This document shows, piece by piece, positions 9,575-60,979 of a stretch of DNA of 64,000 nucleotides. The notes beneath the pieces were generated by a model. It did not search any database. It saw only the letters and a list, made by a program, of their open reading frames with translations, and was not told the origin of the DNA. The position numbers and the translations under genes were made by a program. The DNA comes from Amphiscolops sp. MND2022 (Eukaryota): NCBI GenBank assembly GCA_964187785.1, contig OZ076409.1, forward strand, positions 3,288,001 to 3,352,000, in the 5' to 3' direction. Every line of letters starts with the position of its first letter. Positions within the stretch are counted from its first letter, which is position 1.

Positions 9575-10208
9575 TTTTTTAGTCGGCGCATTTTCCTTTA
9601 AGGAAAAAAGCCCGACTATTACAGTGGCTAGTTTTTTTTTTTTTCGTCAGACCACAGAGCTCATCGCGTATGTACCACTTTTTACAGAAACTGATAAGTT
9701 CACTCAGGCCAAGTTCCACCAATGCAAACTTACAGCAAAGGGTCCCCCCTTTCGTTTTTTACCTTTTTTACGTAACCTACAAAACCGGAAGACTCCAAAG
9801 GGTCCCCCCTTTCAATTTTTTTTTCGGCACTGTGCGAATTTTTTTTTTCGAAAATTTTTAATTTTTCAAAAGAGTCCCCCCTTCGGATTTTTTGATATTT
9901 TGCAACAGAAAGTATGTTAATGAATCCCAACGGGTCCCCCCTTTTCATTTTTCGGCACTATGCGACGTTTTCGAAGTTTTTTTCAAAAAAAATTTTTTCA
10001 AAAAAAATTTTCAAAAAAATTTTCAAAAATTTTTTTGTTTCCAGTCGAGAAAAGTGATTTTCCAGTCATATCGAGCATGAAAGGCACACTTTGGGTGTCT
10101 CGAAAGTGTTTTCAAAGCTTTTCATGAATACATCCTGGGCATATTTAAAAAACTTTGCGCTTTTTGAGCCTTAGATATAGCGCTGACTTTAGACGTTCCC
10201 GTCTTGTT
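9575..10208 (+). mobile_element. HINE-A full copy
   Basis: 5' TTTTAGTCGGCGC..GCCCGACT (subTIR plus partial inverted repeat); 3' AGCGCTGACT-TT-AGACG TTCC CGTCT-TGTT; no TSD; core of CGGCACTGTGCGAC and AAAGGGTCCCCC modules. Confidence 0.8.
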
Positions 10209-10416
10209 GGTTTGAAAAGGAGCAGGATTTTTCCAAAGAGTGTCTGCCTGAAGCTACTGGATCCTGATAGTGGAAAGCTGAAAGTAGTATTTTCTACATT
10301 TCCATTTGGTGTAATGTTTGACGCGTGGTTTTGTGTGATGACTGGGAACAGGAAACAGAAGCACGTGGGTTCGAATCCCGCACAGGACTAACTTTTTCGG
10401 TGTTTGCGAAGGTACA

Positions 10417-12138
10417 TCATCATCATCATCATCATCATCATGTTACCGCCTTGTCCCAGCTGGCTGAGGTTGGCGGGGCGTCCCTGAATCGTCGAACGCC
10501 AGAAAACCCTATTCACTTCCGATAATCGGCGAGCCTTCAGTAGCTCCCGCACAGCGTTATCCCAGGTCTTTTTGGGCCTACCGGGTGGCCTTTTTCCGGT
10601 AACACAAATTGTGTGCCGCTTTGATCGGGTGGGTGTCTTTTCGTCGCACCACGTGCCCAAACCATCTCAGGATACTGGTTTCCAGACATTCAATTACATC
10701 AGGCTGTATTCCAAGCCTTCTTCTCAGCTCCTCCGATGGTAGGCGGTCCACTAGGCGAACTCCGCACATCATTCTCACCATCCTCCGTTCCGTACTCTGC
10801 AATCGCAGCTTCAGGTTGGTAGTTAAACTCCAAGTCTCGCATGAGTAGAGTAGAACAGGGCGCACACATCTACTGTAAATGAAACCACGCTGTCGAAGGG
10901 AGAGCCCGTGCTTACCGACAAGTGTACCTCTCAGGCGTCTGAAGGCGTACCAAGCAGATTGAACTCGGTGGCTTACCGCATCCTCATAACCACCGCTTGC
11001 GTTCACACAATGCCCGAGGTAAACAAACTTATCCACACGTCCTAGCTCACCGAAATCTTCCTCCGAGGTGGTCACCGGATCAGTCGGTTTTGCACAACTC
11101 ACACACACAAAGTTCCTTGCCGAATTCAGACTTCCCCGTATTTCGGAGCATCTTTTGTGTACCCAACACATGCAGGCCGTACAACGGATCGAGTTTACCC
11201 CAACACGCTGTCTGCATACTCCACACGGGTCTATGGCTGCTACATTGGGGCGGCTGTTGCTGTCGTTCGTAGTCAAGCCTTTAGTCTTCACGCTGACCTT
11301 GAGACCTTTCCTTTCCATTGCCGCCTTCCATTTATGGTATTTAGCCAGTACTCCTGTTACGGTTTCGTCACAAAGGGCCAGGTCATCAGCATATAGCAGC
11401 TCCATGAGATCATTATGCCTAGCTGACTCTGTCACGTACTCCATGACTGTGATGAACAACAGGGGGCTGAGGATGGAGCCTTGATGTACTACGCTCACGC
11501 CGAACTCCTCAGACTTCTGGCCGTCAACGAATACAGATGTTTTTGCTCCAGTGTATGTTGCCATCACTGCATTGATCAGCATTTCTGGTACGGCTTGATG
11601 GCGAAGTGCCTCGACGATGACTTGGCGCGGGACCCGATCAAACGCTTTTTCTAGGTCCACAAATATCCAATGAAGTTTCTTGCCTTTTGCTCTGAACTTC
11701 TCGCACAATTGTCTCGTGACAAATATGGCGTCAACTGTTCCTCTTCCAGGCATGAATCCGAATTGAGAGTCATCGACGTGGATTACTTGTCGTAGTCGAC
11801 ATTCAATCGTTTTCTCCAACACCTTGAACGAATGTTCCAGGAGTTTTACTCCCCGGAAGCAGTTAGGATCGAGGGGGTCACCTTTTCCCTTATAGAGAGG
11901 AATGAGTAGACTATGTTTGAGGTCCTCTGGCAAAGTTTCGCATAGCAGGAGGTCATTGGCCATGCTCCTGAGAACTCTGATAGCATCTTCGCCAGCTGCC
12001 TTAAGCATTGCTGCGGTTACACCACTGGGACCAGCTGCTTTGAAGCTATTGATACTGTCCAGCGCATCCCTGACTTCCTTCAGAGAGAACACCTGGCAGG
12101 GTCCATGTGTAACGGGCAGATCATCCGTCACATACTCG
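10417..12138 (-). mobile_element. 5'-truncated RTE-clade non-LTR retrotransposon (RT, Cys-rich insert, (ATG)n tail)
   Basis: RT motifs LYKGKGD, QFGFMPGRGT, FVDLEKAFD, HQGSILSP, YADD. 3' microsatellite tail ((CAT)n on + at ~10415-10441). 12-bp TSD tgcgaaggtaca at 10405-10416 and 12139-12150. Frameshift near 10600 moves the C-terminus (RPPGRPKKTW) into another frame. Confidence 0.92.
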
Positions 12139-12326
12139 TGCGAAGGTACACAAACCGAAAAGCCATCGCTTCGGGGTTTTTGCGGCTTATTTGATTTTTT
12201 TGTGAACAAAATCCTAATTTTTGAAAAGTTATCCAAGACCAGAAAAGTGTAGGAGCTGCCGATAATAAACAAGACCAAAGGTACCCCTTGAAATTTTCTT
12301 TTCAATTCATTAGATCATTCCGTCAA

Positions 12327-13193
12327 TTTTTAGTCGGCGCTTTATCCTTTTAAGGAAAAATGCCCGACTATAGCAGTGACCTTTTTTCTTCAGACTACAA
12401 TCCTCACACTGATCGGTCCAATTTTTAGAAACAATCCTGAAACCACCTAAGGCGCCAAGTCCGGCCAAAGGGCCAAGGCAAACTTAGTGCAAAGGGTCCC
12501 CCCTTTCGTTTTTTACTTTTTCAAGGTAACCTACAAAACCGGACGGGACTAAAGAGTCCCCCTTTCGTTTTTCGGCACTGTGCGACTTTTTCGAATTTTT
12601 TTCTGTCTCCAAAGGGTCCCTCCTTTTATTTTTTACTTTTTTAACGTAACCTACAAAACCGGCCGGGACTAAAGGGTCCCCCCTTTTGATTTTTTTCGGC
12701 ACTGTGCGACTTTTTTTTCGAAAATTTTTTAATGTCTTAAGGGTCCCACTTTGAGTTTTTTGTTATTTTGCAACAGAATGCATGTTTATAAGTCAGAAAC
12801 GGTCCAACCTTTTACATTTTTCGGCACTGTGCGACTTTTTCGAAGTTTTTTCTGTCTCCAAAGGGTCCCTCCTTTCATTTTTTACTTTTTTTAACGTAAC
12901 CTACAAAACCGGCCGGGACTAAAGGGTTCCCCCTTTTGATTTTTTTCGGCACTGTGCGACTTTTTTTCGAAATTTTTTTTATGTCTTAAGGGTCCCACTT
13001 TGAGTTTTTCGTTATTTTGCAACAGAATGCATGTCTATAAGTCAAAAACGGTCCAACCTTTTACATTTTTCGGCACTGTGCGACATTGTCGGAAAGAGAT
13101 AAATTTTCGAAAATTTCAAGTTTTTTTCCAAAAAATGTTTTGCGCTTTTTGAGCTTTAGATATAGCGCCGACTTTAGACGTTCTCGTCTTGTT
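12327..13193 (+). mobile_element. HINE-A copy with an internal ~250-bp tandem duplication
   Basis: Same termini as above; the core block starting at ~12576 is repeated at ~12826. Confidence 0.8.
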
Positions 13194-13891: not shown

Positions 13892-14012
13892 CTAAAGGGG
13901 GGGCTAACCGGATGCAGATATATGGGGGATGGGGGATACATAACATGTACAGAGTGACGTTCTAAAATCAGACAACTTCATTGCTCGAAATAGCAGCATT
14001 CAAATCTAGATA

Positions 14013-14185
14013 CAGTCAACTCCGGTCAATTCGTATCCGGATAATTCGGATCTTCGTCTAACTCGTACGTATCTGAGACCCTCTTTTCGTGACGACCAAA
14101 GTAATTTTCTCGGTTAATTTGTATTTGTCACTATTCGTACCGTTATATTCGGTCCCTAGCGATACGAATTGAGCGGAATAAACTA
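14013..14185. mobile_element. Tc1/pogo-like MITE (second copy at 52207-52378, inserted in a HINE-A terminus)
   Basis: TA|CAGTCAACTCCG termini with TA duplication; TACGAATT internal repeats. Confidence 0.75.
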
Positions 14186-14246
14186 TAATAATAACAACAA
14201 TGATAAAGGACGGGAACGTATTTTACATGATCGAAGAAACTCAATG

Positions 14247-14402
14247 TAACGTTCGGATGTAACGTTTTCAAAGTTCGGATATAACGTTTTCAAAGTTCGG
14301 ATATAACGTTTTCAAAGTTTGGATGTAAGGTTTTCAAAATTCGGATATAACGTTTTCAAAGTTCGGATATAACGTTTTCAAAGTTCGGATATAACGTTTT
14401 CA
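14247..14402. repeat. 22-bp minisatellite, ~7 copies
   Basis: (ataacgttttcaaagttcggat)n, just upstream of a HINE-A 3' end at 14520. Confidence 0.9.
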
Positions 14403-16058
14403 TTTTTCCACAAAACTTTTTTCGATTTCTCCAAAATTTCTTTTTTGATTTTCTCCCAAAATTGCAAATAATTTGTTGAGCCTTAGATATGACGCCGACT
14501 TGGGCTCTTCCCGGCTTGTTGTATTTAAAACATAAGATATTTGAATTCTGTCATTCGGAATTCAGAGCAATGGAGTGTTGCGTTATTTGAGAACGCCACT
14601 GTATCTGCAGCACTAACAAACACGCGCATGACATTCTAGTCTAAAAACTGAAACACTAAAACTGGAACTAAAAAGAAAAGGTTGATGGTTGAACAACGGC
14701 TACTAGATGGCAATGCATGATGCATGTGTTTACCCAAGAGCGGCTACTGGCAGACGAATAGCCCAGGTTAAAGTCATCCCATGGGTCGAAGCCTTGGTCA
14801 ATAGAGCAGCGAGTTAGTTAGTGGCACGTTAGAATCAAAATGATCATAATCGCAACACATTAGAATGGATAGTGGAATATCACCAACCAGCCAACTTAAC
14901 TTGTTCCCAAACAAACAGGTGTTCGGAAATTGAGGTGACACTTTCTTTTGAAGAAACTAAGGCTTCTATTGGAAAACCGCTTCCAAACACTTTCAAAACC
15001 CAGACATTGAAGACAAAATACATATTTAGCATGGGACTTTTTTCACGAAAAAATTCAAATTTCTATGTTGAACGGCCACTTTTCAGCCGCAAAATTTGAA
15101 AGTTTTGAACTTCCACGACAATGAAGAAAAGCAAATTATTCTACGTTCTGGGAAATTGGAATCACGACAGATTCTGAGAGACTTTTGCATATTCGGACGT
15201 AAAACAAAATGAAAACGTCTAGATTTTGTATGTATCAAGAAAAAGTTGCTGGAAAATGGGGTAATGAAGAAAAAACACAATTTACGCAAGCCATAGACTC
15301 TTGATGTGTAATTAATTATCTGGTATAACTTGTATCAGTAGTTCTGCGAAGTTTCAGAACTTTCCGTTTGACAGAAAAAAACTGTGGCCTTGCTTTTTGT
15401 CACCTTAATCTCTGAACACCGTGTACATATATATCAAAATTGAGATGGATTACTTTTTGCTTTAGACTTTCATACTATAGGAGCACAATTCAAGTGAAAC
15501 GAGCGCAATTGGGCAACCTCCTACGTGACCCAACTGATGAATCAGCCGAAATGATGCAGCAAAAATTATCCAAAATTGAAGTGAACTTTGCTCAGCCGAG
15601 CATAGTGTGACCATGACGTAATATGGTTGGGCTCTTTTCTATCCCCTCACCACCTAAATTTTTGAAAGTAAATTTCCTTAAAAATGTCAGACTAGCCTAA
15701 TTAAAAGCAAAACCGTCTTTCATAACAGGAAGTTAACGTCTATCAGAATAGTTTTTTGTTTGAACAAAACAATTTTCACACATCTTGACTATAATTACCT
15801 TCTTATTCACTGTTTTTGTCACTCAAAACAGGAAGCGGTTCGTGTCTTCATAAGAATGCATGTCTTCATACGCAAAAATAGTGGTAACAAGGTTTGTATC
15901 TCAGTTCCAAACGTCACCTTGAAAATGAATTTAAAATTGTACATTTCTGGTTTGTGTTTCAAGTCTTTTTGTTATAATTGTTTCATGTTCCAGCAAACTT
16001 TTCGTGGTGGAAGGGAAACAGAAAAGAGCCTATGTTGTTTTAATGACGACATACATAC

Positions 16059-16421: not shown

Positions 16422-16646
16422 CTGATAACATGAAAAGTTGAAATCAATTGTATGATACACTGAAGAAGAGACTAAAGAAATATTTTACTCAATATAGCCA
16501 AAAATGTTGAATTGAATATCGGCTTAAATTAATTGTTAATAATTAATTTACAATAATTGTCATTATTACATTAAATTTTAATTTTTACACTGACCTCGTA
16601 AATGTGAAATCTTTTGTATTTTATCATAATGTGAGGAAATTCAGTG

Positions 16647-17137
16647 TTTTTCGTCGGCGCTTTATCCTTTCAAGGAAAAATGCCCGACTATAGCAGTGAC
16701 CTTATTTTTCTTCAGACTACAATCCTCACACTGATCGGTCCACTTTTTAGAAAAAATCCTGAAACAACCTAAGGCCAAGTCCGGCCAAGGCAAACTTAGT
16801 CCAAAGGTTCCCATTTTTCATTTTTTTACTTTCAAGATAACCTACAAAACCGGACGGGACTAAAAGAGTCCCCCTTTTCGTTTTTCGATTTTTTTTCGGC
16901 ACTGTGCGACTTTTTTTCGAAAAAAATTTAATGTCTCAAATGGTCCCCCTTCGAGTTTTTTCATATTTTGCAACTGAATGTATCTTAATAAATCCCAAAG
17001 GGTCCCCCTTTTACATTTTTCGGCACTATGCGACATTTTCCGAAAGAAGAAAAATTTCAAGTTTTTCTTTCAAAAAAAATGTTTTGCGCTTTTTGAACCT
17101 TAGATATAGCGCCGACTTTAGACATTCTCGTCTTGTT
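16647..17137 (+). mobile_element. HINE-A full copy
   Basis: ttttcgtcggcgct..gcccgact ... agcgccgactttagacattctcgtcttgtt. Confidence 0.8.
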
Positions 17138-17399: not shown

Positions 17400-18794
17400 T
17401 TGGGCATTGTGAGACTTTTCGAAAAAAATTCCCCAAGGAATGATCCCCTTTGATTTTTTTTGGAGTTTTGCGACACAATGAATGTTGAGTTTTTTTCGGC
17501 ATTGTGAGACTTTTTTTTCGAAAATTTAATCCCCAAAGGGTCTCATTTCAATTTTTTTGATACTTTGCGAGAAATGTTGAAAAATCCAAAAGGGCCCCCT
17601 TTTAGCGCGCCAATTCGGTCCAAAGTTTGGGTTTTCCGGGTACTGTAAAAGAATACTTGACACTTGAAGTTCTGTTGCTATTTTTGAGCCTTAGATATAG
17701 CCTCGACTTTAGACGTTCCGGCTTGTTTTTAGTCGGCGCTTTTATTAATAAAAGAGCCCGACTATTACAGTCACTCGTTTTTTTTTCTTTTTTTGAGACA
17801 GACTCGAAGCGACGAACGTTAACGTTCAACAAAAGGAATACCAGGGAAACACATCTAAGTTATTCCAAAGGGCCCCCTTTGGTTTTTTACTTTTTAAACG
17901 TAACCTACAAAACCGGACGGGACTAAAGGGTCCCCTTTCGATTTTTTTTCGGCACTGTGCGACTTTTTTTCGATTTTGTCTCCAAAGGGTCCCCCTATGG
18001 TTTTTTACTTATTAAACGTAGCCTACAAAGCCAGACGAGTGTAAAGGATCCCCCTTTCGTTTTTTTTCGGCAATGTGAGACTTTTTTGGAAATTTTTTGT
18101 TTCCAAAGAGTCCCCCCTTTGGTTTTTTTACTTTTTAAACGTAGCCTACAAAACCGGATAAGTGTAAAGGGTCCCCCTTTCGTTTTTTTCGGCACTGTGC
18201 GACTTTTTCTCGAATTTTTTTTGTCTCCAAAGGGTCCCTTCGATTTTATTTGAGCCTTAGATATAACGCCGACTTTAGACGTTCCCGGCTTGTTTTTTAG
18301 TCGGCGCTTTTCTAGGGAAAAGTGCCCGACACTTACAGTTGCTAGTTTTTTTCTTTTTTTTTTCGTCAGACTACAATCTCACTCTGATTGGGCCACTTTT
18401 CTTGCAATCGAAACTACTAAAACTACTACCATAAGGCCAAGTCCGGTCAGCGGAAATTAGTGCAAAAGGGTCCCCCTTTCACTTTTTACTATTTTAACGT
18501 AACCTACAAAACCGGACGAGACTAAAGGTCCCCCCTTTCGATTTTTTTTCGGCATTGTGCGACTTTTTTCGAAAATTTTTTATTGTCTCAAAAGAGTCCC
18601 CTTTTCGAGGTTTTTGATATTTTGCAACAGAATATATGTTAATGAAGCCCAAAGGGTCCCCCCTTTTACATTTTTCGGCACTATGCGAGATTTTCTAAAA
18701 GAAAAAAATTCAAAATTTTCATTTTTTTTTCAAAAGTCTTTTGCGCTTTTTGAGCCTTAGATTTGGCGTCGACTTATGCCGTTCCCGTCTTGTT
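17400..18794 (+). mobile_element. Head-to-tail array of three HINE-A units (first one partial)
   Basis: Junctions cttgttttt|agtcggcgct at ~17727 and ~18294; the last unit ends cgtcttgtt at 18794. Confidence 0.8.
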
Positions 18795-18804
18795 CTATTC
18801 TAAC

Positions 18805-19004: not shown

Positions 19005-19057
19005 CTATTGCACAACCACACACTTACACGCTTCTAACCCTAACTAAGACCACTAAC

Positions 19058-19401: not shown

Positions 19402-20245
19402 TCACTAACTCTCAAAACCCCAGGCATCATATTGCTTTAATAGTTTTGGTTGTGCGACAATTCGTCCGAACCGACAATTCGTCCCATATTCCAAAAAGCG
19501 ACAATTCGTCCCAAGCGACAATTCGTCCCAAGCGACAGTTCGTCCCATTTTGAAAAGGCGACAATTCGTCGCATTCGTAAAAAGCGACAATTCGTCCAAA
19601 TTATTTAATTGATCAGCTATTTAACCTCATATCATTTCATAATTCACCCCAAATAATTTTACCCATTTATTTCACCCCACGCTCATATTACCCCACGTTT
19701 TAATTATTAAATGCGTTTCAGAATAATGACTACTCTCACGCAATTTCAGGCGTAGCGCCAAAAGAAAAAGCGTCTTGAATGTAATAACTATCTAAATGCA
19801 ATATTTCTTGATCCATTTTTACAAAGGTATTAATTGGCAATTAAATTGGGGACGAATTGCAGCTTTTAATAATCGGAACGAATTGTCGCCTTTTCAAAAT
19901 GGGACGAATCGCCGCTCTGGACAAATTGTCGCTTCACGAACAGTTTTTTGTTCGAGGTAATGTCAACTTTGCTTCGTTACTTGTCTAGAACACATCGTCC
20001 GCTAAGAACCGACAGACATACTAGGGTCTTGTAAAAAGGAAGCTGAATAGTAAAATGTCTCATTTCAGAAACTGGAGCATATTGTTGTATGTCAATTGAT
20101 GTAAGAGAAGTTTCACCGAGGAAGTGTATATATTCTCATCTCCGTTTATAACGATTCCGTTTATAACGATATTCCGGTAATAGCGATAGTGTTTCACGGT
20201 CCCGGCCACGATGTTAGTATATAACTATTTTCGCCTATAACGATT

Positions 20246-20738
20246 AACAAGACGGGAACGTCTCAAGTCGGCGCTATATCTAAGGCTCAAAAAGCGCAAA
20301 ACATTTTTCTGGAAAAAAACTTGAAATTTTCGGGAAAAAAATTTCTTTCGGAAAATGTCGCAGAGTGCCGAAAAAAGTAAAAGGGGGGACCCTTTTTGAT
20401 TTATAAACACGCATTCTGTAGCAAAATAACAAAAAACTCAAAGGGGGACCCTTTGGGGACATTAAAAAAATTTCGAAAAAAAGTCTCACAGTGCCGAAAA
20501 AAATCGAAAGGGGGGGGTTAACTTTAGTCCCGTCTGGGCTTGTAGGTAACGTTTAAAAAGTAAATGAATGTGCTCCCCGTTTGCCTTTAGCGGTCCAGTA
20601 GTTTAGTACTGTATTTAGTAGTTGAACGTTAATTTTAACGTTCGTCTCTTCGAGTCTGTCTTAAATAAAAAAAAAAGAAAAAAAACGAGCGACTGTAATA
20701 GTCGGGCTCTTTTCTTAAGAAAAGCGCCGACTAAAAAA
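20246..20738 (-). mobile_element. HINE-A copy inserted into a Tc1/pogo-like MITE (~20130-20775)
   Basis: Complete termini. The flanks (ctccgtttataacgat ... atcgttataagcggag) are inverted repeats of each other. Confidence 0.75.
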
Positions 20739-21041: not shown

Positions 21042-21391
21042 GAACAAGATGCACGCTAAGCACCGGAATATTTTCAGCGACACGCTTATTGCAAAAAGTA
21101 TGGCGAAGGAGAGGTTCGAACCCACGACCTACTGGCTAGGAAACAAAAAAATTCAAGCACCAGCCCGGGTTCGAACCTACAACCTGACTGAGCCACCATA
21201 ATTGAAGTAACTCAGTTGTAACAATCGCTAGTGAACTAGTAAAATAGTCAAGTAACTAAAAATAGTCAAGTAACTAAGTGACGTGCACTTCACTCCATGG
21301 AGTGGAGATAAAGTGGAGTTTTGGCAGAATTAGTAAAAAAACGCATCACAGATCATGATTTTTCTCCCCCATTTATGTGGGCGGAAAATAA
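21042..21391 (-). mobile_element. HINE-B family copy with tRNA-like cargo (others at 26281-26640 and ~56597-56793)
   Basis: On the minus strand: 5' ttattttccgcccac..ggggagaaaa inverted repeat; 3' gaaaatatt.cggtgcttagcg.gc.tcttgtt. The block aagtggagttttggcagaat is shared among the three copies. Confidence 0.6.
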
Positions 21392-21413
21392 CGAGAAGGA
21401 AAAAGTCGTCTAC

Positions 21414-21624: not shown

Positions 21625-22478
21625 CTGTCAAAGTCATTGGACTATTGGTTATCTACGTTCTAACAGCATACACGCCACAAACTTGGCTCTACAAATTGAA
21701 TTGAAAAAAGTGTTCAGAATAGAGACCTTTCGAATCAGGTTTCACTCCGCTATACACAATTTCAGTGAATTAATGGCCGCAACTGGTTCCAAATAGTCGT
21801 AATCAATAAAATGTCCAAAAATGTTTTTTTTTCAGATTAAGAATTTCAAATTTAGACTGAGAGTCGGGCATTTTTGTCTCAAAAAAGTCGCACAGTGCCG
21901 AAAAATCCAAAAAGAGACCCTTTAGGCTCGCAAAACGCTTTTTTGAACCGAAAAATGTTGAACAAGAAATGGAATGCCTTTTGATCATATGATTTTTTTA
22001 AAGTCGCACAGTGATATGGGGGCAAATGAGTGACTGAAAATTTTTCAAAAATATTTTTCCAACTTTGTGAAAATCAAGAAAAAGTTCAAATTTGATGAAA
22101 TTTTGTCAAAATTTACAATTTCTAACAGAAATTTCAAACAAACATTTTTGTAAACTAGATAAAATTCTAAGCTCGCAAGTTTTTGTATTCGTGACAGTTT
22201 ACGAGATATTTGTTTTTGAATTTTGCCATTTTATGCAATGAGGTTGCGATATTTTAGAACGCTACTACTGTACTGTTAGTTCCTACTGTACTGTGTATAT
22301 GGGGGGTGTAATTGGGTAACAGAGGCTAGCTGAGTAGATGTGGATTGTGTTGTGTTGAGCAGCGGAGATATTAATTTTATAAAATTTTTATTCAAAGTTT
22401 TGAAAATTTGCAAAAACGCCCAGGTCAATTAGGGTTAAAAAATAACAAGGAGCTTTTGTTTTCTGTAAACGTGCTAAC

Positions 22479-22749: not shown

Positions 22750-22839
22750 CTGCAAACCAAAAACAACTCAATGACGTCACTACAAGAAGCCAGTGCCGCC
22801 ACCTTATCTTCTCATTTAGAACAGGGCGGATTTGACCGT

Positions 22840-48294: not shown

Positions 48295-48399
48295 CAACGA
48301 AATACTGAAATGACTCTTTACCTTGGAGAAAAAGACAAATATAATTCATTATGTTGAATTTTTCTTTGAAAGTGTGAGGGAAAAGGAAAAAGAACCGAT

Positions 48400-51300
48400 T
48401 GAAGTAACTGAAGGGTTGTCCTTATAAAAATTCAGGATTTTCCGTCACACAACGTTCCAATGAACAAGGAAAACAGTAGAATGAAAACCTTTCGAATGGA
48501 ATGAGTAAGTGGAGCATCGCTGAGATTGTCCTGACTAATGACTGCTCTCCCGGCCTCCACTGTAATAATTTCAGGCTCACACTTTCTACAAGGTCAGGTC
48601 GAAAGGTCAAGCAATGACTGTGTTGCACACACGAGACATGCTTGAGAGCCATTGAACAAACAATGCACAAAATAACAAGTCAGCAATGTTTCAAGCCAAC
48701 CACCACTTTCGTTCTCTATTGACAATAAATTCAGTATGAAATATAGTTTACTGTATTGTCGAAAGGGTTAACAAAAAATTAATGAACAAGGAGCACAAAG
48801 GACCAGCTTGATATTGTTCACAACGAGAATTTGCATCATCTTGCTGCAATCTGATTAAATGCCGAGCATTGTCGCCAGTATGAAATCACGCGCGTGAATT
48901 AGCGTGATTTTCTTTCTAGCCAATTAGAATGCTCCGTGACATGGTCTCGTTTTAAAACGGAACTAGGAATTGGCGCAATATGATGGTTTTGAAGTAACTA
49001 TTCTAGTTTTCAAATTTGTCACTTCAGACCGCCGAAGTTTAGATTTTATGCTGGCCATATCACCAGCTCGGTCGAACTTTCACAACAACCCGCAACAGTA
49101 GGGAGTCACTGTTTAAAGCATATTTAGGGACAGCGGGCGGGTATAACGTTTAAAGCCAAGTCATGCGGTCCCTCTCAAAACATTGAATTTTAGACGTTAT
49201 TCCCGAAACATTTTTAGACGTTATTCGCGCCCCTACATATTTAACAATTAAGAATATAATTCAAACCCAAACGGACCACGATTTCGTACCAGTTAGTTTC
49301 AGTAAACTTCTGAAGGCACTAGCTGACCGTATGGAAAAGAAAACTATTGAATACGAGTTTTAGACAATATTACATAGCATCGCACGCATTCTCACAAAAT
49401 ATTGACTTGATGTCTATAGAATAAAAAACGGAGACCAAAAAAATTGTAAAAAATGCAGATTTTCAGTTTTTCCAGTTGCCGTTTGTGGCCACAACTCGAT
49501 CGCTGCGCCATCTGGATTGGCGCTGAAACAACTTACACTTGCAAGCGTTTTGCGGCGAACTAACCGTAAGATCACCAAACGAAGACTTTACTGAAATGGA
49601 ATGGAGATGATTTGTCGACTAATAAAACGTTCCGATGGTTGATTGTGATGTTGAGAGAAGCCTCAATGTAAACAAGGATAAACTCACAAGCAAGTGACAA
49701 AGTTTGACGGGGATAATTTAGGAACCATCGGGGCTGTTTTGTGCTTGTTATCAATCAATTTATTTCAATTTTGGCCACATATTTCCCCGAAAAATTTGAG
49801 TATTTTCAGCAAATTTTCTATGCAATGTCCTCTTTTTAGGTAACATAAAAGTTCTAGCTCTACAACAGACGCAGTAACAACTTGGCTTTGCTGGCAGTGC
49901 CTATTCTGTTCGAAAATTTTACATGTCAAATCAAATTGCGCCCTGCACTGGTGAGAAAATCTCAGCGTTTTTTCGTTTCTCTGACAAATTTAAATGCTCA
50001 TTATGGTTTTGGAAAATTGCTAGAAAACAAACTCCGGTGATACCAATTTTGTTTTGCATATCCTTTCTCGATATACCGAATAGCGACAGAAAATGGGCCC
50101 AAAAATCAAAAACTTTGAGAACCGTGGTACGAAATATCACGCGATCGTCCGGAACATATGATAGGGTGCTACAAATTTTTGAAGTGGTTATTGTAGAGTA
50201 GGTAATTATGACATTACCACCAAGTCAATATTTTCCGAAAGTGAGTAGAATTCATTATAACAGGCGAACACTATCGATGGCCGAAGAAATGGTTTTGAGT
50301 GGTGGGTTGCATGGTCGGATCAGAGAATTTTTATTCTGCGCTTTCTTAGAGCAGACTATAGTGGTGACTTCTTGAAATTTTTCAAGACCAGCGAACTGAC
50401 AGATTTCTATGAGCAATATCAGCTACAACTTAGTGACATCTAACTGCCACTTGGCATAGAGGTTAACGTGGATTTCCTGATTCTGGGAAGCAGATGTTCG
50501 TAGGTTCGAGTCTCGCACTAAACTGATTTTTTTAATGCGTGCAAAAGTAGAGGGTAGACCAAAATATGAGTTTTTTATGATTGTGGAAAAGACCTACGGT
50601 TTTTTCGACTCTGTGCGAAAAAACCGCAGATCTTTTCCACAATCACTGAACTCACTTTCAGAACTGATTTCGGCCTGGAAAAATGTAGTTTCGCGAGTTG
50701 AAAGCTCCATTTTCAGCACTGAGACTTCTTCCGAAAAAAAATTCGAAAAATGTATCAAAATTTGGGTTTTTTGATGTTTTAAGTTGGAGAAAAAGCAGTT
50801 CTCGAGTCTTGTGGGTATCCATCCCTCCGGGTATTTTTTGACAGTGTAAATTTGATAAAATTTTCACAATTGTGTTCTTTTGTATATATAAATATATAAC
50901 AAACTTTGCTCTTTTTGGACCTTGAGCGGGGAGTCGACTTGGGCCGTTCCCAGCTTGTTTGTTTCACTTTATGCATGATTTGAAAGTGGTCCCGTAGCGT
51001 TTCAAAAGCATTTGTGTTCTGACAAACTTCTTCCGTAATAGGTTTTGGCTCTTCAAATAATGAGAGATTTCCCACAAACTTTCGCTTTCGATCACGGAGC
51101 CGAGTATTCATAATTCGGCGCCTTCGAACAACGTTGGCGTTTTTTGAAAGCTCCTTTCCGCTATCTGCAGATACAACAACATTACATGTTAATGTTTTTG
51201 TTGTACTCATTAGAAAAATCCTAGCACTTTTTTCCGACTTGAAAAACAGCTTCAAATCGTTTTGTCCCCACTATTCCAAGAATGATTGAGCGGTCAAAGC

Positions 51301-51925
51301 GGGTTGGCAAAAGGGACCGACGCGTTTACATATCGGAACAAAGAGCCATATTTCGAGGGAAGTCCTCGTTTCTCAAAAAGTCCGAATTGCCCACGTTACT
51401 ATAGCCAACAAGACGGAACGTCTAAAGTCGGCGCTATATCTAAGGCTCAAAAAGCGCAAAAGACTTTTTTAATAAAAAAACTTGAAATTTTTGATTTTTT
51501 TCTTTCAGAAAATGTCGCATAGTGCCAAAAAATGTAAAAGGGGGACCCTTTGGGCTTTATTAACATATTTTCTGTTGCAAAATATCAAAAAACTCGAAAG
51601 GGGGAAAAAGGGGGACTCTTTTGGAAAAAAGTCGCACAATGCCGAAAAAAATCGAAAGGGGGGACCCTTTTGCACTAATTTCCGCTGACCGGACTTGGCC
51701 TTATGGTAGTAGTTTTAGTAGTTTTTATAGTAAGAAAAGTGGCCCAATCAGAGTGAGATTGTAGTCTGACGAAAAAAAAACTAGCCACTGTAAGAGTCGG
51801 GCACTTTTCACTAGAAATGCGCCGACTAACAACAAGCCGGGAACGGCCCAAGTCGGCGCCTCGCTCAAGGTTCATAAGTTTTTAAATATGCAAAAGGACG
51901 CGAAAAAAATTCGAAACGAAAAATA
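48400..51925. repeat. Older, diverged paralog of ~39820-43757
   Basis: Collinear homology (ORF 49572 vs 40951; 51286 region vs 43053 region) with different insertions. Confidence 0.85.
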
Positions 51926-53282
51926 TTCATTTCGAAAAACCTCGCAATGTCGAAAATTGTATAAAAGAGACCTTTTGGGCTTTTTGAAAATCCAATTTAG
52001 TGCAAAATATCAAAAAATTGAAGAGGACCCTTTCGTCTCGCCCGGTTTTGCAAATGTACAAAAACTTATTGGCTGAAGCAGGGAGTCGAACCTGCGACCG
52101 CTAAATTCCCACTAAAACGATTAACCTCTGTACCAAAAAGCGATACAAACAGGGTGAGCTTTGTGGTCTGACGAAAAAAACTAGCCACTCTAAGTGTCGG
52201 GCACTACAGTTGAATCCGCCTAATTCGTATCGGTGGGACCGAAAAAATAGTACGAATAATGAGAAATACGAATTAACCGGATGATATTCCTTTGGTTTTA
52301 GCAAAATGGGGGTCTCCGATAGATACGAATTAAACGAAGATCCGAATTATCCGGATACGAATTAACCGGAGTTGACTGTATTTGTCAAAATAGCGCCGAC
52401 CTAAAAATCAATGATCCCAAAACGTCGTTGGTTGCAGCAAATCCTCAGCAAACAAACATCGTACATCTACATGTATTGCTAGCTGATCATTTTCTAGTTT
52501 CTAATCAAAGGGTAGTTTCTAATCAAAGGGTAGTTTCACCAAAATGACAGTTTTTTTCTTCTCTTTCTTCTTGATCAGATTGCTCAACAAAATTGGACGC
52601 ATCCATATTCATACATCATTTGCATCAAAAACTGTCACTCACGGTGCAAAACAGCCAGTGTTGCATGATGAGACCAAAAGCATGCATGCGAACAACAATT
52701 ACACATGGTTTTGTATGGACCTGTCTGCAATAGAAGCAGTAGTAGTACCGGTGCCGGCCCAGCTGTAGTGTGTTGCTTGGGTCTTTAACTATTAATCATG
52801 TACCTGATTTGACCAATATGCCCATCAATTATTCACAGGCCGTCGTTCAAACGCATCCATCGACTGAGTTTGTGTGTGTGTGTGTATTCTATATATTCTA
52901 GTATTCTACTCCACACTACAACAGTACCAACCAACCGCCAATCGGGCAGTGATAGTGCAAAAACGGCGCTATAGTTTTGGCCGAACGAGGGGGGAGGGGA
53001 AGCTTGCAGTGAATTGTCGTGTATTTGTAAAAACCGTTACGTGTAATTTAAAAAATCGTGTATTTTCTGCTATATCATGTATATTGGTGTATCTTTTCTG
53101 AAAAATAAAAAGAATACCTTTGAAGCAACGCATTATCATCAATTACCTTTGTTTGAAGCGAAAAATCTTCAAACCTAAGATTCCATTTTTTATCCATTTC
53201 AATTTCAAGTCAAGCTTTTTGCGTTTTGTTTTTTTCAGCACTCAGTCCATTCATTTTTGCCATTTCCTTTTCATGCTTTATA

Positions 53283-54898
53283 TTTTTAGTCGGCGCTTTT
53301 ATTAATAAAAGAGCCCGACTATTACAGACATTCGTTTTTAGTCGGCGCTTTTCTTAAGAAAAGAGCCCGACTATTACAGTCACTCGTTTTTTTTTCTTTT
53401 TTTTTATTTAAGACAGACTCGAAGCGACGAACGTTAAAATTAACGTTCAACTACTAAATACAGTACTACTAAAATACTGGCAGCGCATTTGAGATAGTGC
53501 AAAGGGTCCCCCCTTTCAGTAAGTCCATTTTTATCGTAAGATACAAAACAGGACGAGACTATAGGGTCCCCCCTTTGAGTTTTTTCGGCACTGTGCGACT
53601 TTTTTTTCGAAAATTTTTTTTTTGTCCCCAAAGGGTCCCCCCTTCGAGTTTTTTGATATTTTGCAACGGAATGTATGTTAATAAATCCAGAAGAATCCCC
53701 CTTTTACATTTTTCGGCACTATGCGACATTTTTTGAAAGAAAAAAATTTTTCAAAAATTTCAATTTTTTTCCAAATTTTTTTTTGCGCTTTTTGAGCCTC
53801 AGATATGGCGCCGACTTTAGACGTTCCCGTCTTGTTTTTAGTCGGCGCTTTTCTTAAGAAAAGAGCCCGACTATTACAGTCACTCGTTTTTTTTCTTTTT
53901 TTTATTTAAGACAGACTCGAAGCGACGAAGGTTAAAATTAACGTTCAACTACTAAATACAGTACTACTAAAATACTGGCAGCGCATTTGAGATAGTGCAA
54001 AGGGTCCCCCCTTTCAGTAAGTCCATTTTTATCGTAAGATACAAAACAGGACGAGACTATAGGGTCCCCCCTTTGAGTTTTTTCGGCACTGTGCGACTTT
54101 TTTTTCGAAAATTTTTTTTTTGTCCCCAAAGGGTCCCCCCTTCGAGTTTTTTGATATTTTGCAACGGAATGTATGTTAATAAATCCAGAAGAATCCCCCT
54201 TTTACATTTTTCGGCACTATGCGACATTTTTTGAAAGAAAAAAATTTTTCAAAAATTTCAATTTTTTTCCAAATTTTTTTTTTGCGCTTTTTGAGCCTCA
54301 GATATGGCGCCGACTTTAGACGTTCCCGTCTTGTTTTCTCTTTTTTCAACTCTTAAGTTAAGACAGACTCGAAGCGACGAACGTTAACGTTCTATATGTT
54401 CAACTAAAATATCTTCCTTTCTCTTTTTTTTCACAAAATGGGGACCGTGCGAAGCGAAACTATGTTGGTCTGCAACAGGAATGATGGCCCAGAGTTCAAA
54501 GGGGCAATTTTTAAACTGAGGAATGAGATAGTGCCGAATCGCTGCAAGCTGCAGAGCCTCCTTGCAGTGTCAGTAACGGTCCCCGCATACACAAATATTG
54601 AAAACCTCATCAAGTGGAGGACAGATTTACAAAACACCAAAATTTTCAAAATCTATATGTTCAACTAAAGGAAACTAAACGAATACCCGGGAAACGCATC
54701 TAAGTTATTCCAGAGGGTCCCCCTTTGGTTTTTTACATTTTAGACGTAACCTACAAAACCGGACGGGACTAAAGGGTTCTTTCGATTTTTTTTGGCACTG
54801 TGCGACTTTTCGAAATTTTTTTTGTCTCCGAAAGGTCCCCCCTTCGATTTTATTTGAGCCTTAGATATAGCGCCGACTTGGGCCGTTCCCGGCTTGTT
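53283..54898 (+). mobile_element. HINE-A interrupted by a near-identical tandem pair of HINE-A (53335-54335, period ~498 bp) and by a fragment at 54409-54651
   Basis: Identical ORFs at 53440 and 53938; junction cgtcttgttttt|agtcggcgc at ~53836; the outer element resumes after 54335. Confidence 0.85.
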
Positions 54899-57898
54899 CA
54901 CATCATTGTCGCTTCACGAAGAAGTTCAACTTAACTCGTGCTAAGCATTCATCGTGGAATTTTCTGAAAAAACGGAAAATAGCACAATGTTGCCAAAACC
55001 GGAAGTAGCTGGGATGAATACAATAGTGTGGCAAAATTGACTGCCAGTGAATTGACGTCGGTACGTGTATTGTACCGGAATATACGAATTTCTTGGTATC
55101 GCTACACGAACTATCGGTTAACACGATTTACTCAAATTTACACGAGAAATTGAAGCAATTTTATTGGCTTCCGAAATGAGTATAAAAGTGTGAAAGGAAT
55201 GAATTGATTCTGACTTTTGGCGAGAAAAAACTGGAACAATTGCTTCAAAGGTATAGTTCTGGAGATCTTGTCATATCTGGAGCCAGTTCTGGAGCCGTGG
55301 AAAGGAAATTCTGAGATGCGCTGATGAACGGAACAGACTTCTAGCAGTGAATTTGGAAAATATTGTTAAATTGCGTTTTCTGAGCGGACTCATTTATTTT
55401 CGAAAAACTTTTTTCACAGTCGATACACGATAATTTTTTATACACGATACCGATACACTAAAGGATTATACACGAAAAACACGATACACGATTTTCAGTA
55501 CACGAGTCAATTCATTTTTCTCGAGACTGCAATGTTAGGTTATGAAAGGAGCCACAAACTTCAATTAAAACTGTTATATTCAACTGGATGGATTGAGTTT
55601 CGGACTAAAGACTTCATCAAAACCAGTTGAAACGTTAACAATATTAATATGCAAACCTCATTGCATGTTGATTAGCTACGACACAGTTTTCCTCTCTCGA
55701 CCAGAATCGGCCAAAAGAGTGACATCAGTTTTTAATTGAACCGTCCTTTTCATAATGAATGCGAAAAAGTCCTAGAAGTGTTTCAAAAAGTTTCCCCTCA
55801 AAAGCCTGTGCTTATGAGAAGCCTTTTCAGGGGCTATATTAATTTTACGTTTGTACTTATATGTTGATATTTCCATACGATTATATATAACATATATTGA
55901 ACGCATATTATGAATTATTATATATAGTGCACCCTGATAAATTCAATTATAATTATTATTATAAATCGAACTGGCCTCAGTAGCAAAATATTATAAAAAG
56001 TAAACGGGGACCATTTGGTGAATCTCAAACTATTCTTGGAAATGTCACACAGCGCAGAAAGCCAAACAAGTTTGAAGAAAAGCAAAATGCATGGAATAGC
56101 TAGTTCAATCCAGTATGGCGGGTGGTTTAGCTCATCAAAGCTGCTATGGGCGGGGGACTTTTGTAGTTTCCTATTCTTTCGCAAAAACACTGGTTTCTCG
56201 CAAAAACACTGGTATCATCTACATCTTCTGATACAAAGAATCGAACTCCTCAGAAGTGCGAAGCTAACTAACCTTAGTCCGCATGTTCCTACAACTTAGG
56301 CGTATGGCTCTGAGGCAGGGAATTGAAGTCGGTCGAATTTTCTCGTATCGTTACACGAACTACCGATTTACACGATTGGTTTCAGAAACGAGTATAAAGT
56401 TATTTGGCGTTCGCTCGGACACGTAAAAAACTCGCTAAGAATGAAATGGTCCGGATATTTTGGCGAGAAAAGGAACTAGAAGGGATTAAAAAACTAGTTC
56501 TGGAGATGTTGTCAATCCCGGCAAGTTCTGGTTCAATGGAAAGGATGCTCGTTTTTTTCGTGATTTAAGATAAGCTGACAGACTTTCACCAATGATTTTT
56601 GGTGTAGCGTTTTTTTCCAAATTCTGCCAAAAGTCCACTTCATCTCCACTCCACTCCATTTAGTAAATTCTAGTCACCATGGCGCAGTTGGTAGTGCGTC
56701 TGCCTGGCACACAAGAGGTCGTGGGTTCGAACCCCTTACTTATGCCTTACATTTTTAGCGGAAAATATCACGGTGCTTAGCGGGCGTCTCGTTAGAATTG
56801 TTTTCTGAACGAATTTATTTTATTTTCAAGTTTGTTTTTACAGCCGATACACAGTACCGTACACGATAATTTTTTTGTACAAGATACCGATGCACTAAAG
56901 GAAAATACAAGAAAAATACGATACACAATTTTCAGAACAGTAGCCAATTCACTGCTCTGTGGTTTTTGAGCACAAATCTTGTGGCAATTTTTCAACGCGA
57001 AAGGTCCGGCTCAACCTGTGGTAGCATTGTCACTTCAACGTGAAATTTTCGAAAAATCGTTAGATCACTTTTCGGACGTACCAGTCCCCCCAACTTTTCA
57101 AACTTTGCAAAAGAAGTGAGAAGAATGATTCACTTAGAACCAATCTTGAATTACAACCCTTGTCACTTGAATAGAAATGCAAACATTCGCACTCGAATGA
57201 AAGATATTGATAGTAGTGATATTGACGCTTTTCACTCACTCCTTTGAATGTAGTCAAAGCTATCAGCGAATGATTGAGCGAAGTCAGTCAGTCATTCAGT
57301 ATACTAGAACCAACACTCGTTCCGTTCACACTGTCAAAAGTATCCACAATAGTGTAAGAAATAAACTGAACCTTTATTTGTAAAAAAGAATTGGACCAAA
57401 ACAAAACTAGCTCTGATTTCTGCTATTATTCAAGTTATTTGAAAATAAATTAAACAAACATTCTCGAGTTTTGTTGGGCACTTGAAATGTAGGTTTGCAA
57501 ATAATGATAAAACTTCCTAACTTAATTTTTCATTGATTGTATTTTCTACTGAATTGGCATATGGGACATCATTTTGGACAATTTTGTAACATTTGGGACT
57601 TAATTTCGAACTCTTGTTTATTAGGCAGGTACTTCATTTACTGAAGACATTCAACTATTTTATATCAAGATAATTGGTAGTATAAAGTTTTGGAAAGGGG
57701 TTTTCTATTATTTAATTTCATTAACTATCTTAATACGTGGGACATTATCCATTAATACCCATTATCTCAGACATTCAATTTGTCTTTCCAGTCCCTTAAT
57801 ATCATGTGTAAAATAGAGAATGAACGAAATCTCCATGTAAAATGCTAGGTCCGTTTACATGCAGTCCAAATCATTTCCTACAAATAAGGGTTCAGTTC

Positions 57899-58278
57899 GG
57901 GGACTGTTCAATTCGTCGAACATTCAATTCGTCGAACACGTATTACTTTAGCGAGCAATATATGACGTAATGGAATGAATTGATTTCGGCCAATCAAATT
58001 CGAGCATTCAAAATTACGATAACGTAGTCAGATATGTTCACATACTCCTAGTGCCCTAAATGCAGGAGCGAAGCGAAGCGGAGCGACGTGCCATATGGCC
58101 ATGCCTCAATATTGCTACTTGGCGAAGGGAGCGAAGCGACCGAGCCATACAACAAATATGCTAATCGCTACAAAAAAATAACCAAATGAAATTAATCGCT
58201 GATATGGAATTCTTTCGACGCATTGAATAGCTTTTCATCTTTCGACGATTTGAATGTTCGACGAATTGAATAGGCACC
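57899..58278. mobile_element. Mutator-like MITE with TTCAATTCGTCGAA arms
   Basis: Perfect 9-bp TSD gttcagttc (57890-57898, 58279-58287); GG...CC termini. Confidence 0.85.
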
Positions 58279-58867: not shown

Positions 58868-59356
58868 CAGCCACGCATGGCAGCTAATCACGCAAATTTT
58901 TCGCATAATTCACGCTGAAAATGTCACGCTAAGAAGACGAAAATCACGCCAAATTCACGATTCTTTCCACTAAAACACGAAAAAACACGATTTTTCAAGT
59001 GTTTCAATTCAACTTGGATGAAGTAACATACAGAAATAAAAGATGTTTCAATGTTTCTACATCAAGTCTTTGACGGTTTTCCGTGAGAATTTTCTTGAAA
59101 TTTGAGAATGTGCGTTCCACTGGGCAAGAAAATGAAGGCAGAAAGCAATATTTCATTGCAGTTTTTGATAACGTTGAAATTGTTTCGATATTTGCGTTCC
59201 AAAAATCCATTATGAGAGGAGTTTCATATTTTTCATTTCAAACAAGGTTGAATTTCATGTCACAAGTTGGCAAAATCAATCAATTACATGATATTTGACG
59301 GGGCAATTTGATTGAATAGAATTCACGTGATTACACGGATTCACACGCCATGGCTG
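58868..59356 (-). mobile_element. Internally deleted hAT element with dimerisation-domain fragment
   Basis: ORF 59004-59210 FW...LSKTAMKYCFLPSFSCPVERTFS..KKILTENRQRL; CACG subterminal repeats; flanking direct repeat gggaacag. Confidence 0.8.
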
Positions 59357-59950
59357 GGGAACAGCTAATGAATGATTTGTACTGAACTTCAGATACAAGA
59401 CTGGCCAAGGTTCGCTATCTTTACTCACTTTCGCGGCAACACTCAGCTAATAAGGGTAACAAGTGAGCGTTAAGTAGCCCAACGCTTAAAGCAATGACCA
59501 ATGATCCTGCTAAAATTAACAACAATCTAGATAAGATTAGATGGTACAGTCACAGAATGAGGACTACAGGGAATAATAGCAACAGAATTAACAAACGAAG
59601 GAAGCGGGGAAACAGGAAAATAAGCAGGATACGTGGACAGGGACACATAATACAGTCTAATGCGTGGGCCAAAGACGGCGGCTCTTCTTGCCGTTTCCTT
59701 ACCAAGTGAGAAAGAACAAAAAAGAGCAAAGCCAAGGATAGGAATTTCCGTGCTCAGAGATTCAAACTAGGACAAGCAACAAATAGGAAGGAAGTTTGTG
59801 GCCACAATGGATGCTGTCAGTGTAGAACGCTAATTAAATAGCAACACTCGTATCAGCGTGAAAGTAGGTAATTAGTTCGATGTAGTATATAGCCGAACGA
59901 TTGTAAAACAAAAACCGTAGTGAATACTATGATAGGAGCTTATAATTGAG

Positions 59951-60170
59951 AGGAGCATGGAGTAAAGGTTAGAGCATTCGGCCTGTACTGGGGCGGTATC
60001 AGGTTCGAATCTCTCTCAACTCACCATTGTTGGGCCTTGAGCAAGTCCTTCATCCCTAGCTTAGTGGTATGGTCAGTGACAAAAAATAACGCATTTGACG
60101 GAGAAAAGCAGAAACAAGAAGAGCAACGGTGTGCAGTCAGACCTTTGTGACCTTGAGCAAGCCACTCTGA
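59951..60170 (+). mobile_element. tRNA-derived SINE with CORE-like segment
   Basis: A-box-like TGGAGTAAAGG (59958), B box GGTTCGAATC (60002), then gggccttgagcaagtcctt and tgtgaccttgagcaagccact. Confidence 0.6.
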
Positions 60171-60543
60171 AACCACAGCTTCAAGTTCACCATTGCTTGA
60201 CCATTTGGCTGCAAATATGGAACCATAGCTTATTCGGCGTCCACTCCGCGGAATTGGGAAAATAACTTTCCTCTTTGTTTGTTTCTCTAATTGGCTGCTG
60301 GACTTTGATTTGATTCCGGAGAAAAAAGGAGTTTTACCTAAAAATCTAGTTTTAATATGTAGATCAAGGACATTGTCAGTTTATAACATGAACAACAGAT
60401 TTGATGGCGATCTTTCTTAGAAATACTTGAATAATTGACCGTGTTCTGATTGATCAAATGGGCGCAAACTTGAAAACCACTGGTGCTCATTTTGCGTCGA
60501 CATTGGATATTTATATAATAAAAAAAGACTCAATGTAATATAC

Positions 60544-60979
60544 AGCAAGACGAGAACGTCTAAAGTCGGCGCTATATCTAAGGCTCAAAAATAGCAAGAC
60601 TTTTTTTGAAAAAAACTTCGAAAATGTCGCAAAGTGCCGAAAAATGTAAAAGGGGGACCCTTTTTGATTTAAACATACATTCTGTTGCAAAATAACAAAA
60701 ACCGGACATTGAAAAATTTTCAAAAAAAATCGCACAGTGCCGAAAAAATCGAAAGGGGGGGACTCTTTAGTCCCGTCCGGTTTCCTAGGTTACCTTGAAA
60801 AAGTAAAAAATGAAAGGGTAGACCGTTTGCACTAAGTTTGTCTTGGCCGGACTTGGCCTGAGGTGGTTTCAGCGATGTTCCTGAAAAGTGAATCGATCAG
60901 TGTGAGTGATGTCTGAAGAAAAAAGGTCACTGCTATAGTCGGGCATTTTTCCTTGAAAGGAAAACGCGCTGACTAAAAA
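60544..60979 (-). mobile_element. HINE-A full copy
   Basis: caagacgagaacgtctaaagtcggcgct ... agtcgggc..cgcgctgactaaaaa. Confidence 0.8.

Follow-up and report, generated by a model that had tools for sequence, protein, structure and literature searches.

HINE-type elements of an Amphiscolops sp. locus insert into T-runs and nest in one another, with repeats of one family placed between the ends of another at a single composite locus

Central repeat monomers of one family of Helentron-like elements (family A) were found between the unrelated termini of a second (family C) in a 64,000-nucleotide stretch of Amphiscolops sp. MND2022 DNA (contig OZ076409.1; hereafter, the window), a case of sharing across families that rests on one locus. 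We consider it likely that these are ordinary HINEs, whose targeting of T-runs leads to nesting, head-to-tail arrays, and the occasional passage of repeat arrays from one family to another rather than to a dedicated cassette system, and that a third family (B) is uninvolved. HINEs, including DINE-1, have been described as non-autonomous Helentrons (Thomas, Vadnagara and Pritham 2014, PMC4067079; Yang and Barbash 2008, PMC2374699). For family A, both structure and insertion pattern support the assignment to this class well; for family C it is reasonable, and for family B tentative. Because no RepHel was detected in a Pfam scan of 79 of the 174 open reading frames (ORFs) of the window, we infer rolling-circle movement from the anatomy of the elements.

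Family A covers 22.4% of the window and the three families together 26.1% (hand-drawn spans), with B and C jointly below 4%; a sequence-only reading had called the whole the dominant component of this DNA. AGTCGGCGC is found at 35 places, where shuffled windows have 0.05, and nhmmer found 33 family A 3′ ends and 34 matches to the 5′ profile, six of the latter being echoes of the hairpin on the reverse strand. Copies are 0.3–0.9 kb long. Briefly, the element at 9575–10208 (plus strand) consists of the 5′ end, monomers X and Y, a partial Z-like tail, and the 3′ end; those at 16646–17137, 12326–13193, and 23816–24340 (all plus strand) contain the commonest layout X Y, the array X X Y X Y, and Y, box, P, and partial Z, respectively. 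Further elements are located at 20246–20738 and 60544–60980 (both minus strand), and a cluster at 37842–39346 comprises copies at 37842–38374 (plus), 38578–38757 (plus; 3′ part), and 38781–39346 (minus). An A-ended element at 42063–42782 (plus strand), with a tRNA-like cassette and a Z monomer also present in C, is duplicated at 45753–46472 and 50327–50959 (segmental duplication); ORFs overlapping the copies at 42063 and 50327 had no Pfam match, most A-internal ORFs lying outside the 79 scanned. Beyond the range covered by the sequence-only reading, we found three more copies (1619–1860, 2700–3121, and 4087–4514, spanning 1619–4514 on the minus strand) and a 3′ part that runs off the end of the window (63804–64000, minus strand).

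The subTIRs of family A, with a length given as 9–10 bp, match exactly over 8–10 bp in seven of the eight copies checked, the eighth having a central mismatch; the 5′ subTIR is placed near the end, and the 3′ one is internal. Folding of two copies supports the 5′ hairpin (z, −4.3 and −3.8), and the 5′ partial inverted repeat is paired with the subTIR in 84% of cells (slid controls, 38–51%), with covariation not above shuffles. Judged by folding energy only, the 3′ hairpin is weak (z, −1.2 and −1.4). The stem-loop following the 3′ subTIR is 89.6% paired and contains 12 cells with two-sided change, mostly representing one compensatory switch common to related copies (A-T in 11 and C-G in 12 of 27).

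At least five T precede 18 of the 21 complete family A copies, and 17 of the 21 have no non-T direct repeat, in agreement with the earlier claim of insertion without a consistent target site duplication (TSD); the remaining four have direct repeats of 2–4 bp, which were likewise found in 138 of 420 mismatched pairs. A target duplication consisting of T only may nevertheless occur at these sites, and the ambiguity between TT duplication and none has been discussed for DINE-1 (PMC2374699). Two A-in-A insertions into T-runs could be compared with empty sites: one has 5 + 3 T when filled and 6 T when empty, a net gain of exactly 2 T, and the other has 5 + 4 T against 8–9 T, a gain of 0–1 T. In the element at 35644–36472 (minus strand), a second A (35754–36303; tRNA-like cassette, Y, and P) is nested in a T-run of the X monomer of its host, with empty-site paralogues at 17855 and 54700. 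Similarly, an A dimer (53335–54335; 99% identical) is nested in a T-run of an outer A element (53282–54898, plus strand), which also carries a foreign ~270-bp insert at about 54386–54654. Six head-to-tail A junctions were identified, three of them paralogous. Three different copies stand head to tail at 17400–18794 (plus strand), with junctions of 5 and 6 T and X X X in the middle copy. In the head-to-tail pair at 51406–52407 (minus strand), the upstream copy contains a tRNA-like cassette, its 5′ hairpin loop is interrupted by a MITE-like insert, and the downstream copy, together with the neighbouring 3′ end, has paralogues at 43221–43760 and 46911–47450. Because T-runs are its target and T-rich sequence lies on the same strand in its own ends and interior, family A inserts into and beside copies of itself.

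The monomers X, Y, and Z align as one family of ~100–125 bp with the same box at the end (mean column identity, 50%). Within A, Mantel tests gave r = 0.42 (p = 0.004; 16 copies) for the 5′ region against the 3′ end, r = 0.51 (p = 0.003; 13 copies) for the 5′ region against Y, and r = 0.30 (p = 0.075, not significant) for the 3′ end against Y. Since these three parts are positively correlated, free reassortment of ends and cores does not apply within A, where ends and interiors are partly linked (r, 0.3–0.5). Some mosaics do exist: A36298 and A42069 are alike in the 5′ region and tRNA-like cassette but not further downstream, and the same body is followed by different hairpin variants in three copies.

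Family C is represented in the window by one composite locus and an orphan 5′ end, which hold its only two 5′ ends. The composite (27904–29340, minus strand) has no A termini, and its order is 5′ end, Y, box, Y, box, P, an antisense tRNA-like piece, and a degenerate 3′ end, with a distal part of two ~390-bp units (79% alike), each consisting of Z and a C 3′ end; it thus totals one 5′ end and three tandem 3′ ends. Both distal units, diverged by 21%, keep intact subTIRs and hairpins. The 10-bp subTIR pair, the 5′ inverted repeat, and the 3′ hairpin are all present, as judged from one locus and one orphan end, with z-scores of −5.5 (27904–29340) and −6.0 for the 5′ folds and −1.8 to −4.4 for the 3′ folds. 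TTT flanks the composite on both sides, and no direct repeat was seen by eye at this single locus. The orphan 5′ end (34263–34312, minus strand) leads into non-A sequence, with no T before the end at 34310 and no A-type tract after it.

Profiles trained on A detected Y (39 and 39 bits), Z (54 and 39 bits), and the box (27, 20, and 17 bits) in C, where shuffles reached at most 12 bits, and the monomers keep the orientation that they have in A; the earlier claim that A and C share cores is thus confirmed. The A 5′ and 3′ profiles had no match in the composite (27904–29340). As C carries A-type Y and Z without A termini, a complete A element nested in C is ruled out, in accord with the sequence-only reading. 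The A element at 23816–24340 is the best match in the window to the C 5′ tract (84% over 180 nt), and AAGGGACCCTTT has only three exact matches, two of which are in C. Microhomology in a T-run marks the junction of the C 5′ end with the A-type tract, which is absent next to the other C 5′ end. The mean closeness of the two Y monomers of C to those of A (0.69) matches that among the A monomers (0.685). Each has an A copy as its nearest neighbour, and 0% of bootstrap trees have a branch that sets the two apart from the rest, although their clade is not rejected by the AU test (p = 0.12). The two Z monomers of C are 86% identical to each other and 79–83% to those of A. Given this greater mutual closeness and the divergence of the units, the link of Z to C is not a recent one and may hold throughout the family. 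No element in the window combined A with C ends.

Family B differs in its lack of these monomers. Copy 1 (21043–21392, minus strand) has a 5′ subTIR with a partial inverted repeat, a 3′ subTIR with one mismatch, and two tRNA-like B-box pieces, without a supported hairpin or A-type monomers; copy 2 (26281–26641, minus strand) has an intact 5′ end, a shortened 3′ end, and a different interior; and copy 3 (56592–56793, plus strand) is 5′-truncated, with a tRNA-like cassette and an intact 3′ subTIR. None of the three has both ends intact, the subTIR match extends to 10 bp only when one copy is compared with another (7 bp exact inside a single copy), and only TT, not a T-run, lies upstream. The 8-mer originally assigned to B, TTTTCCGC, occurs nine times (5.7 expected), near chance, and TATTTTCCGC three times (0.3 expected), above chance. 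The 5′ folds have z-scores of −2.2 and −2.9, and the 3′ stem-loop, earlier called the least clear, is unsupported in all three copies (−0.31, +0.63, and +0.27). When the window was scanned de novo for HINE-type end pairs, A and C were recovered together with four single matches, and B was missed. The layout attributed to all three families is confirmed for A and for C at 27904–29340, but not for B. The X, Y, Z, P, and box profiles had no match in any B copy, which rules out B as a sharer of cores and contradicts the interchangeability of modules across all three families. A 22-bp repeat common to B copy 2 and the array at 14237–14407 was rejected as module sharing, its orientation being opposite relative to the respective ends.

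Family A, and probably C and B, would be non-autonomous HLE2/HINE elements moved in trans by RepHel encoded elsewhere, each family presumably retaining its own matched ~10-bp subTIR pair. The central tandem array of A, built from one monomer family, expands, contracts, and mixes. Mosaics may then arise by deletion between T-runs, by template switching, or when a 3′ end is read through, and one or a few such events would have put A-type monomers between C termini. The C 5′ junction at the T-run microhomology would be accounted for by a nested insertion with later deletion, or by a single template switch.

The sequence-only reading envisaged a genome-wide modular system, in which families would routinely reassort their terminus pairs and core cassettes among themselves. 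This would account for Y and Z (with P) being common to A and C in the same orientation, and for mosaics such as A36298/A42069 and the three like bodies with different hairpin variants. We regard it as unlikely, because B shares no monomers, C is a single locus with a sister 5′ end devoid of the cores, A shows a correlation of its ends with its interiors, and associations between arrays and flanks in the oyster are reported to be mostly stable (PMC7492417). The sharing of cores by A and C stands, and the three-family system was overstated. It is quite improbable that the C locus is an immobile local patchwork, formed by insertion of A into C, deletion of both A ends, and duplication of the 3′ part in place, with the cores never spread by C; the T-run junction, the single locus, the degenerate first 3′ end, and the tendency of A to nest in T-runs fit such an origin, but it requires a traceless loss of both A ends, and the 21% divergence of units with intact subTIRs and hairpins suggests that mobile forms existed. 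MITE-like cut-and-paste derivatives with TT target duplication, with which the clean empty site gaining exactly 2 T is formally compatible, are very improbable in view of the asymmetric ends, the internal 3′ subTIR, the covarying hairpin, the gain of only 0–1 T at the second nested site, and the tandem 3′ ends of C and head-to-tail arrays, which fit rolling-circle elements.

Ordinary HINEs, as preferred here, have close counterparts. In the published descriptions of DINE-1/HINEs (PMC4067079, PMC2374699), subTIRs are 12–15 bp (11–15 bp across published families), as compared with 9–10 bp here; DINE-1 has a GTCY microsatellite, none of which was noticed by eye in the copies inspected, and is described there without tRNA-related structure, in contrast to the degenerate tRNA-like cassettes of the present elements. 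Cg_HINE of the Pacific oyster (PMC7492417) resembles them in its short central arrays of related monomer subfamilies, double arrays, fixed orientation relative to the ends, and shuffled and nested loci, although its monomers are mostly 140–180 bp rather than ~100–125 bp. The same ends with different repeats, as well as double arrays, are reported in that 2020 survey, where each array is presented with one flank pair, whereas Y and Z occur here with two unrelated terminus pairs. For oyster repeats, a review mentions one array type in different Helitron elements (PMC12628747), a precedent stated there with reference to a 2021 paper. Composite transposition and end bypass are described for Helitrons of bats (PMC4224331), which likewise yield chimeras from neighbouring copies and tandem arrays; those Helitrons are canonical and capture host sequence, whereas the ends here are of the HLE2 type and the cargo is the repeat of another family. 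The present data add HINE-type families, with one locus showing how T-run targeting leads to nests, dimers, and mosaics, and a central repeat between unrelated ends means that repeat families annotated from their interiors will not agree with those annotated from their ends. If the sharing is genome-wide and recurrent, it would provide a natural test of whether RepHel specificity depends on the ends alone and whether an element spreads better with central repeats.

Degenerate tRNA-like cassettes were observed inside all three families. They are not called genes, because they mostly fold no better than shuffles (z, +0.9 to −2.5); ARAGORN found no tRNA gene in the window, and Rfam gave one sub-threshold tRNA match. 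Their enrichment in the elements was rejected as significant (about three independent origins inside versus two outside), and none of the papers listed by a literature search dealt with such cassettes as recurrent HINE cargo. It is doubtful that one genome-wide pool of cargo, the ~120-bp boxed monomer and tRNA-like Pol III promoter cassettes, repeatedly supplies several Helentron families whose subTIR pairs are unrelated; such cargo would be a functional hitch-hiker hopping between replicase specificities that might act, for example, as a host-factor binding site or as a transcription-driven opener for rolling-circle initiation. Exact-pattern scans for the A termini or core box returned no loci in viral, metagenome, and genome contigs. 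For a LINE reverse transcriptase in the window, ENA assemblies contain a relative at 98% identity, through which no loci were recovered. Searches with one PDZ exon of the window had no match. The elements are packed into introns of a RIM-like animal nerve-synapse gene.

The three Helentron-like families, told apart by their termini, cover 14,323 bp (22.4%; family A), 923 bp (B), and 1,487 bp (C), as computed from hand-drawn spans in this single window, from which all element results are drawn. No further locus came from matching A termini or the core box exactly against viral, metagenome, and genome contigs. In family A, the sequence AGTCGGCGC is found 35 times, against 0.05 in shuffles, and a profile search yielded 33 3′ ends and 28 5′ hits once 6 hairpin echoes were removed. 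The 5′ end carries a long hairpin (z, −4.3 and −3.8) with conserved pairs, but with covariation no higher than in shuffles. The 3′ end runs from the subterminal inverted repeat (subTIR) through a five-pair hairpin to TGTT; this hairpin is 89.6% paired and shows an A–T/C–G switch (11 and 12 of 27 copies, a count inflated by related copies).

The sequence-only reading held that these elements insert without target-site duplication. A non-T direct repeat is absent from 17 of the 21 complete A copies, which include paralogous ones, and measures 2–4 bp in the other four, a lower frequency than in mismatched pairs (138/420). At least five Ts lie upstream of 18/21 copies, and exactly five in 14/21. 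An A copy nested inside an X monomer (a variant of the central repeat) of another A shows 5+3 T at the filled site; the two nearest paralogous sites lacking an insertion have 6 T. An A dimer (99% identical) that interrupts the T-run of another, outer A shows 5+4 T versus 8–9 T. The claim stands for A as regards non-T repeats, while a T-only duplication may be compatible with the T counts; the same ambiguity is discussed for DINE-1 (PMC2374699).

The interior "modules" are, as judged by alignment, a central tandem-repeat family: variation on one ~100–125 bp monomer, ending in the two motifs already named in that reading, accounts for X, Y, Z, and the leading segment of the C units. Variation in module content among A copies is borne out by XY, XXX, XXYXY, Y-with-P (P, a further interior segment), and Z arrays. 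Distances of the A 5′ region are positively correlated with those of the 3′ end (r = 0.42, p = 0.004, 16 copies) and of Y (r = 0.51, p = 0.003, 13 copies), as are, short of significance, 3′ and Y distances (r = 0.30, p = 0.075), excluding the interrupted outer copy at 53288; descent of A as whole units is thus common. Mosaics also occur: copies A36298 and A42069 agree across the 5′ region plus tRNA-like cassette and differ downstream, and one body is found in three copies with differing terminal hairpin variants.

The C composite (27904–29340, minus strand) consists of a 5′ end, Y, box, Y, box, and P segments, an antisense tRNA-like piece, a degenerate 3′ end, and two ~390-bp units, each being Z plus the C 3′ end. 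Profiles trained on A-ended copies only scored 39 (Y), 54 (Z), and 27 (box) bits in C, versus ≤12 in shuffles, and 31 bits for P, for which 16 was reached by 1/200 shuffles; all these monomers lie in the orientation of A. A complete A nested in C is ruled out, since A terminus profiles found no match there. The C 5′ tract is 84% identical to A23822 over 180 nt. The Y monomers of C fall inside A diversity and never grouped in bootstrap trees (2 duplicate rows dropped), and their clade was not rejected (p-AU, 0.12). Z, also found between A ends at 42063–42782 (one event, copied three times), is 86% identical between the C units and 79–83% between C and A. Sharing of monomers by A and C is real, though observed at one locus. 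The C 5′ end joins the A-type tract at a T-run, the trace that would be expected from nesting plus deletion or from a template switch; the only other C 5′ end, at 34310, runs into unrelated sequence.

Interchange of cores does not extend to family B, in all three copies of which X, Y, Z, P, and box are absent; B takes no part in core sharing. Its copies have ~100 nt of 5′ region or 3′ end in common, none in the window with both ends intact. The 5′ end folds moderately well (z, −2.2 and −2.9), only TT precedes the subTIR, and the 3′ hairpin ascribed to B is unsupported by folding. B may be a non-autonomous Helentron (HINE) that lacks one defining feature here.

Degenerate tRNA-like A-box/B-box cassettes are located in three independent A copies (36084–36158(−), 42185–42264(+), and 52072–52141(−)), two B copies (21100–21200(−) and 56673–56744(+)), and C (28787–28844(+), antisense to C), and at two sites outside (10310–10383(+) and 59960–60030(+), the latter resembling a SINE head). 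They are only ~50% alike between families, were not called as tRNAs, and are probably tRNA- or SINE-derived pieces that were captured on separate occasions; the literature listings searched showed no report of such cassettes as recurrent HINE cargo.

The window shows directly that each family has its own matched ends, that elements target T-runs and are nested or joined head to tail, that arrays vary, and that monomers of A type lie between C ends. The observation is confirmed in part, and its interpretation as a modular system with reassorting termini and cores is supported in part. Movement would be in trans by RepHel, the replicase-helicase of autonomous Helentrons, none of which was found in the 79 of 174 window ORFs scanned, and mosaics may form when an end is read through, when the template is switched, or when sequence between T-runs is deleted. 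For Helitrons, composite transposition and end bypass have been documented (PMC4224331) and discussed (PMC4067079). The layout fits the HINE/DINE-1 and HLE2 definitions, with shorter subTIRs, and the central repeats of A and C resemble those of oyster HINEs (Cg_HINEs), for which PMC7492417 describes double arrays and identical ends carrying different repeats; a 2025 review reports one array type across different oyster Helitron elements (PMC12628747). With this precedent and layout, the elements belong to a known kind.

The window is animal DNA with ~39% GC, over much of which a minus-strand multi-exon gene extends. One exon encodes a PDZ domain, scored by Pfam at E 6.7e-4, which falls short of the curated cut-off; its best solved-structure match is RIM1 (E, 1.6e-5). 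The gene (1300–30030(−)) is RIM/UNC-10-like, its PDZ domain has an insertion relative to RIM1, and B copies are found close to apparent splice donors (~8 and 22 nt away). The self-matching share of the window is 45.5%, part of it from a tandem segmental duplication (40055–52033; period near 3.7 kb), 98% identical over 40055–48294 with an older partial copy reaching ~52000; a ~330-bp insert near 41550–41900 is missing from the copy near 50160.

Other repeats include a 5′-truncated LINE (10400–12152(−)), presumably of the RTE clade, whose reverse-transcriptase frame is open and which has a (CAT)n tail, a 12-bp target duplication, and a 98% identical relative in ENA assemblies. A ~200–270 bp repeat with short inverted ends (54386–54654, 25732–25938, 5554–5672, and 33797–33887) has one copy inside an A element, its flanking 18-bp duplication only partly host sequence, and another after a lone A 5′ subTIR at 25982. 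A MITE-like element (52206–52381; relative at 14010–14187) has inserted into the 5′ hairpin of an A copy, within the loop. Two segments (21858–22438(−) and 1870–2345(−)) start with what we take to be a piggyBac-like end leading into A-type box or Y monomers; they represent a fourth type of end or else fragments that lie next to each other. A 22-bp tandem repeat upstream of an A 3′ end (14237–14407) recurs in B copy 2 (26330–26465), oppositely oriented to the ends. Another reverse transcriptase (31363–31749(−)) and the dimerisation domain of a hAT transposase (59007–59237(−)) are present as fragments. Still other repeat families, several of which have inverted ends or contain short tandem repeats, show no relationship to A, B, or C. 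They lie at 4923–5401, 19448–19934, and 22837–23302; 3416–3813, 5767–6165, and 15627–16032; 24768–25249 and 55045–55514; and 34696–34863 and 58012–58179.
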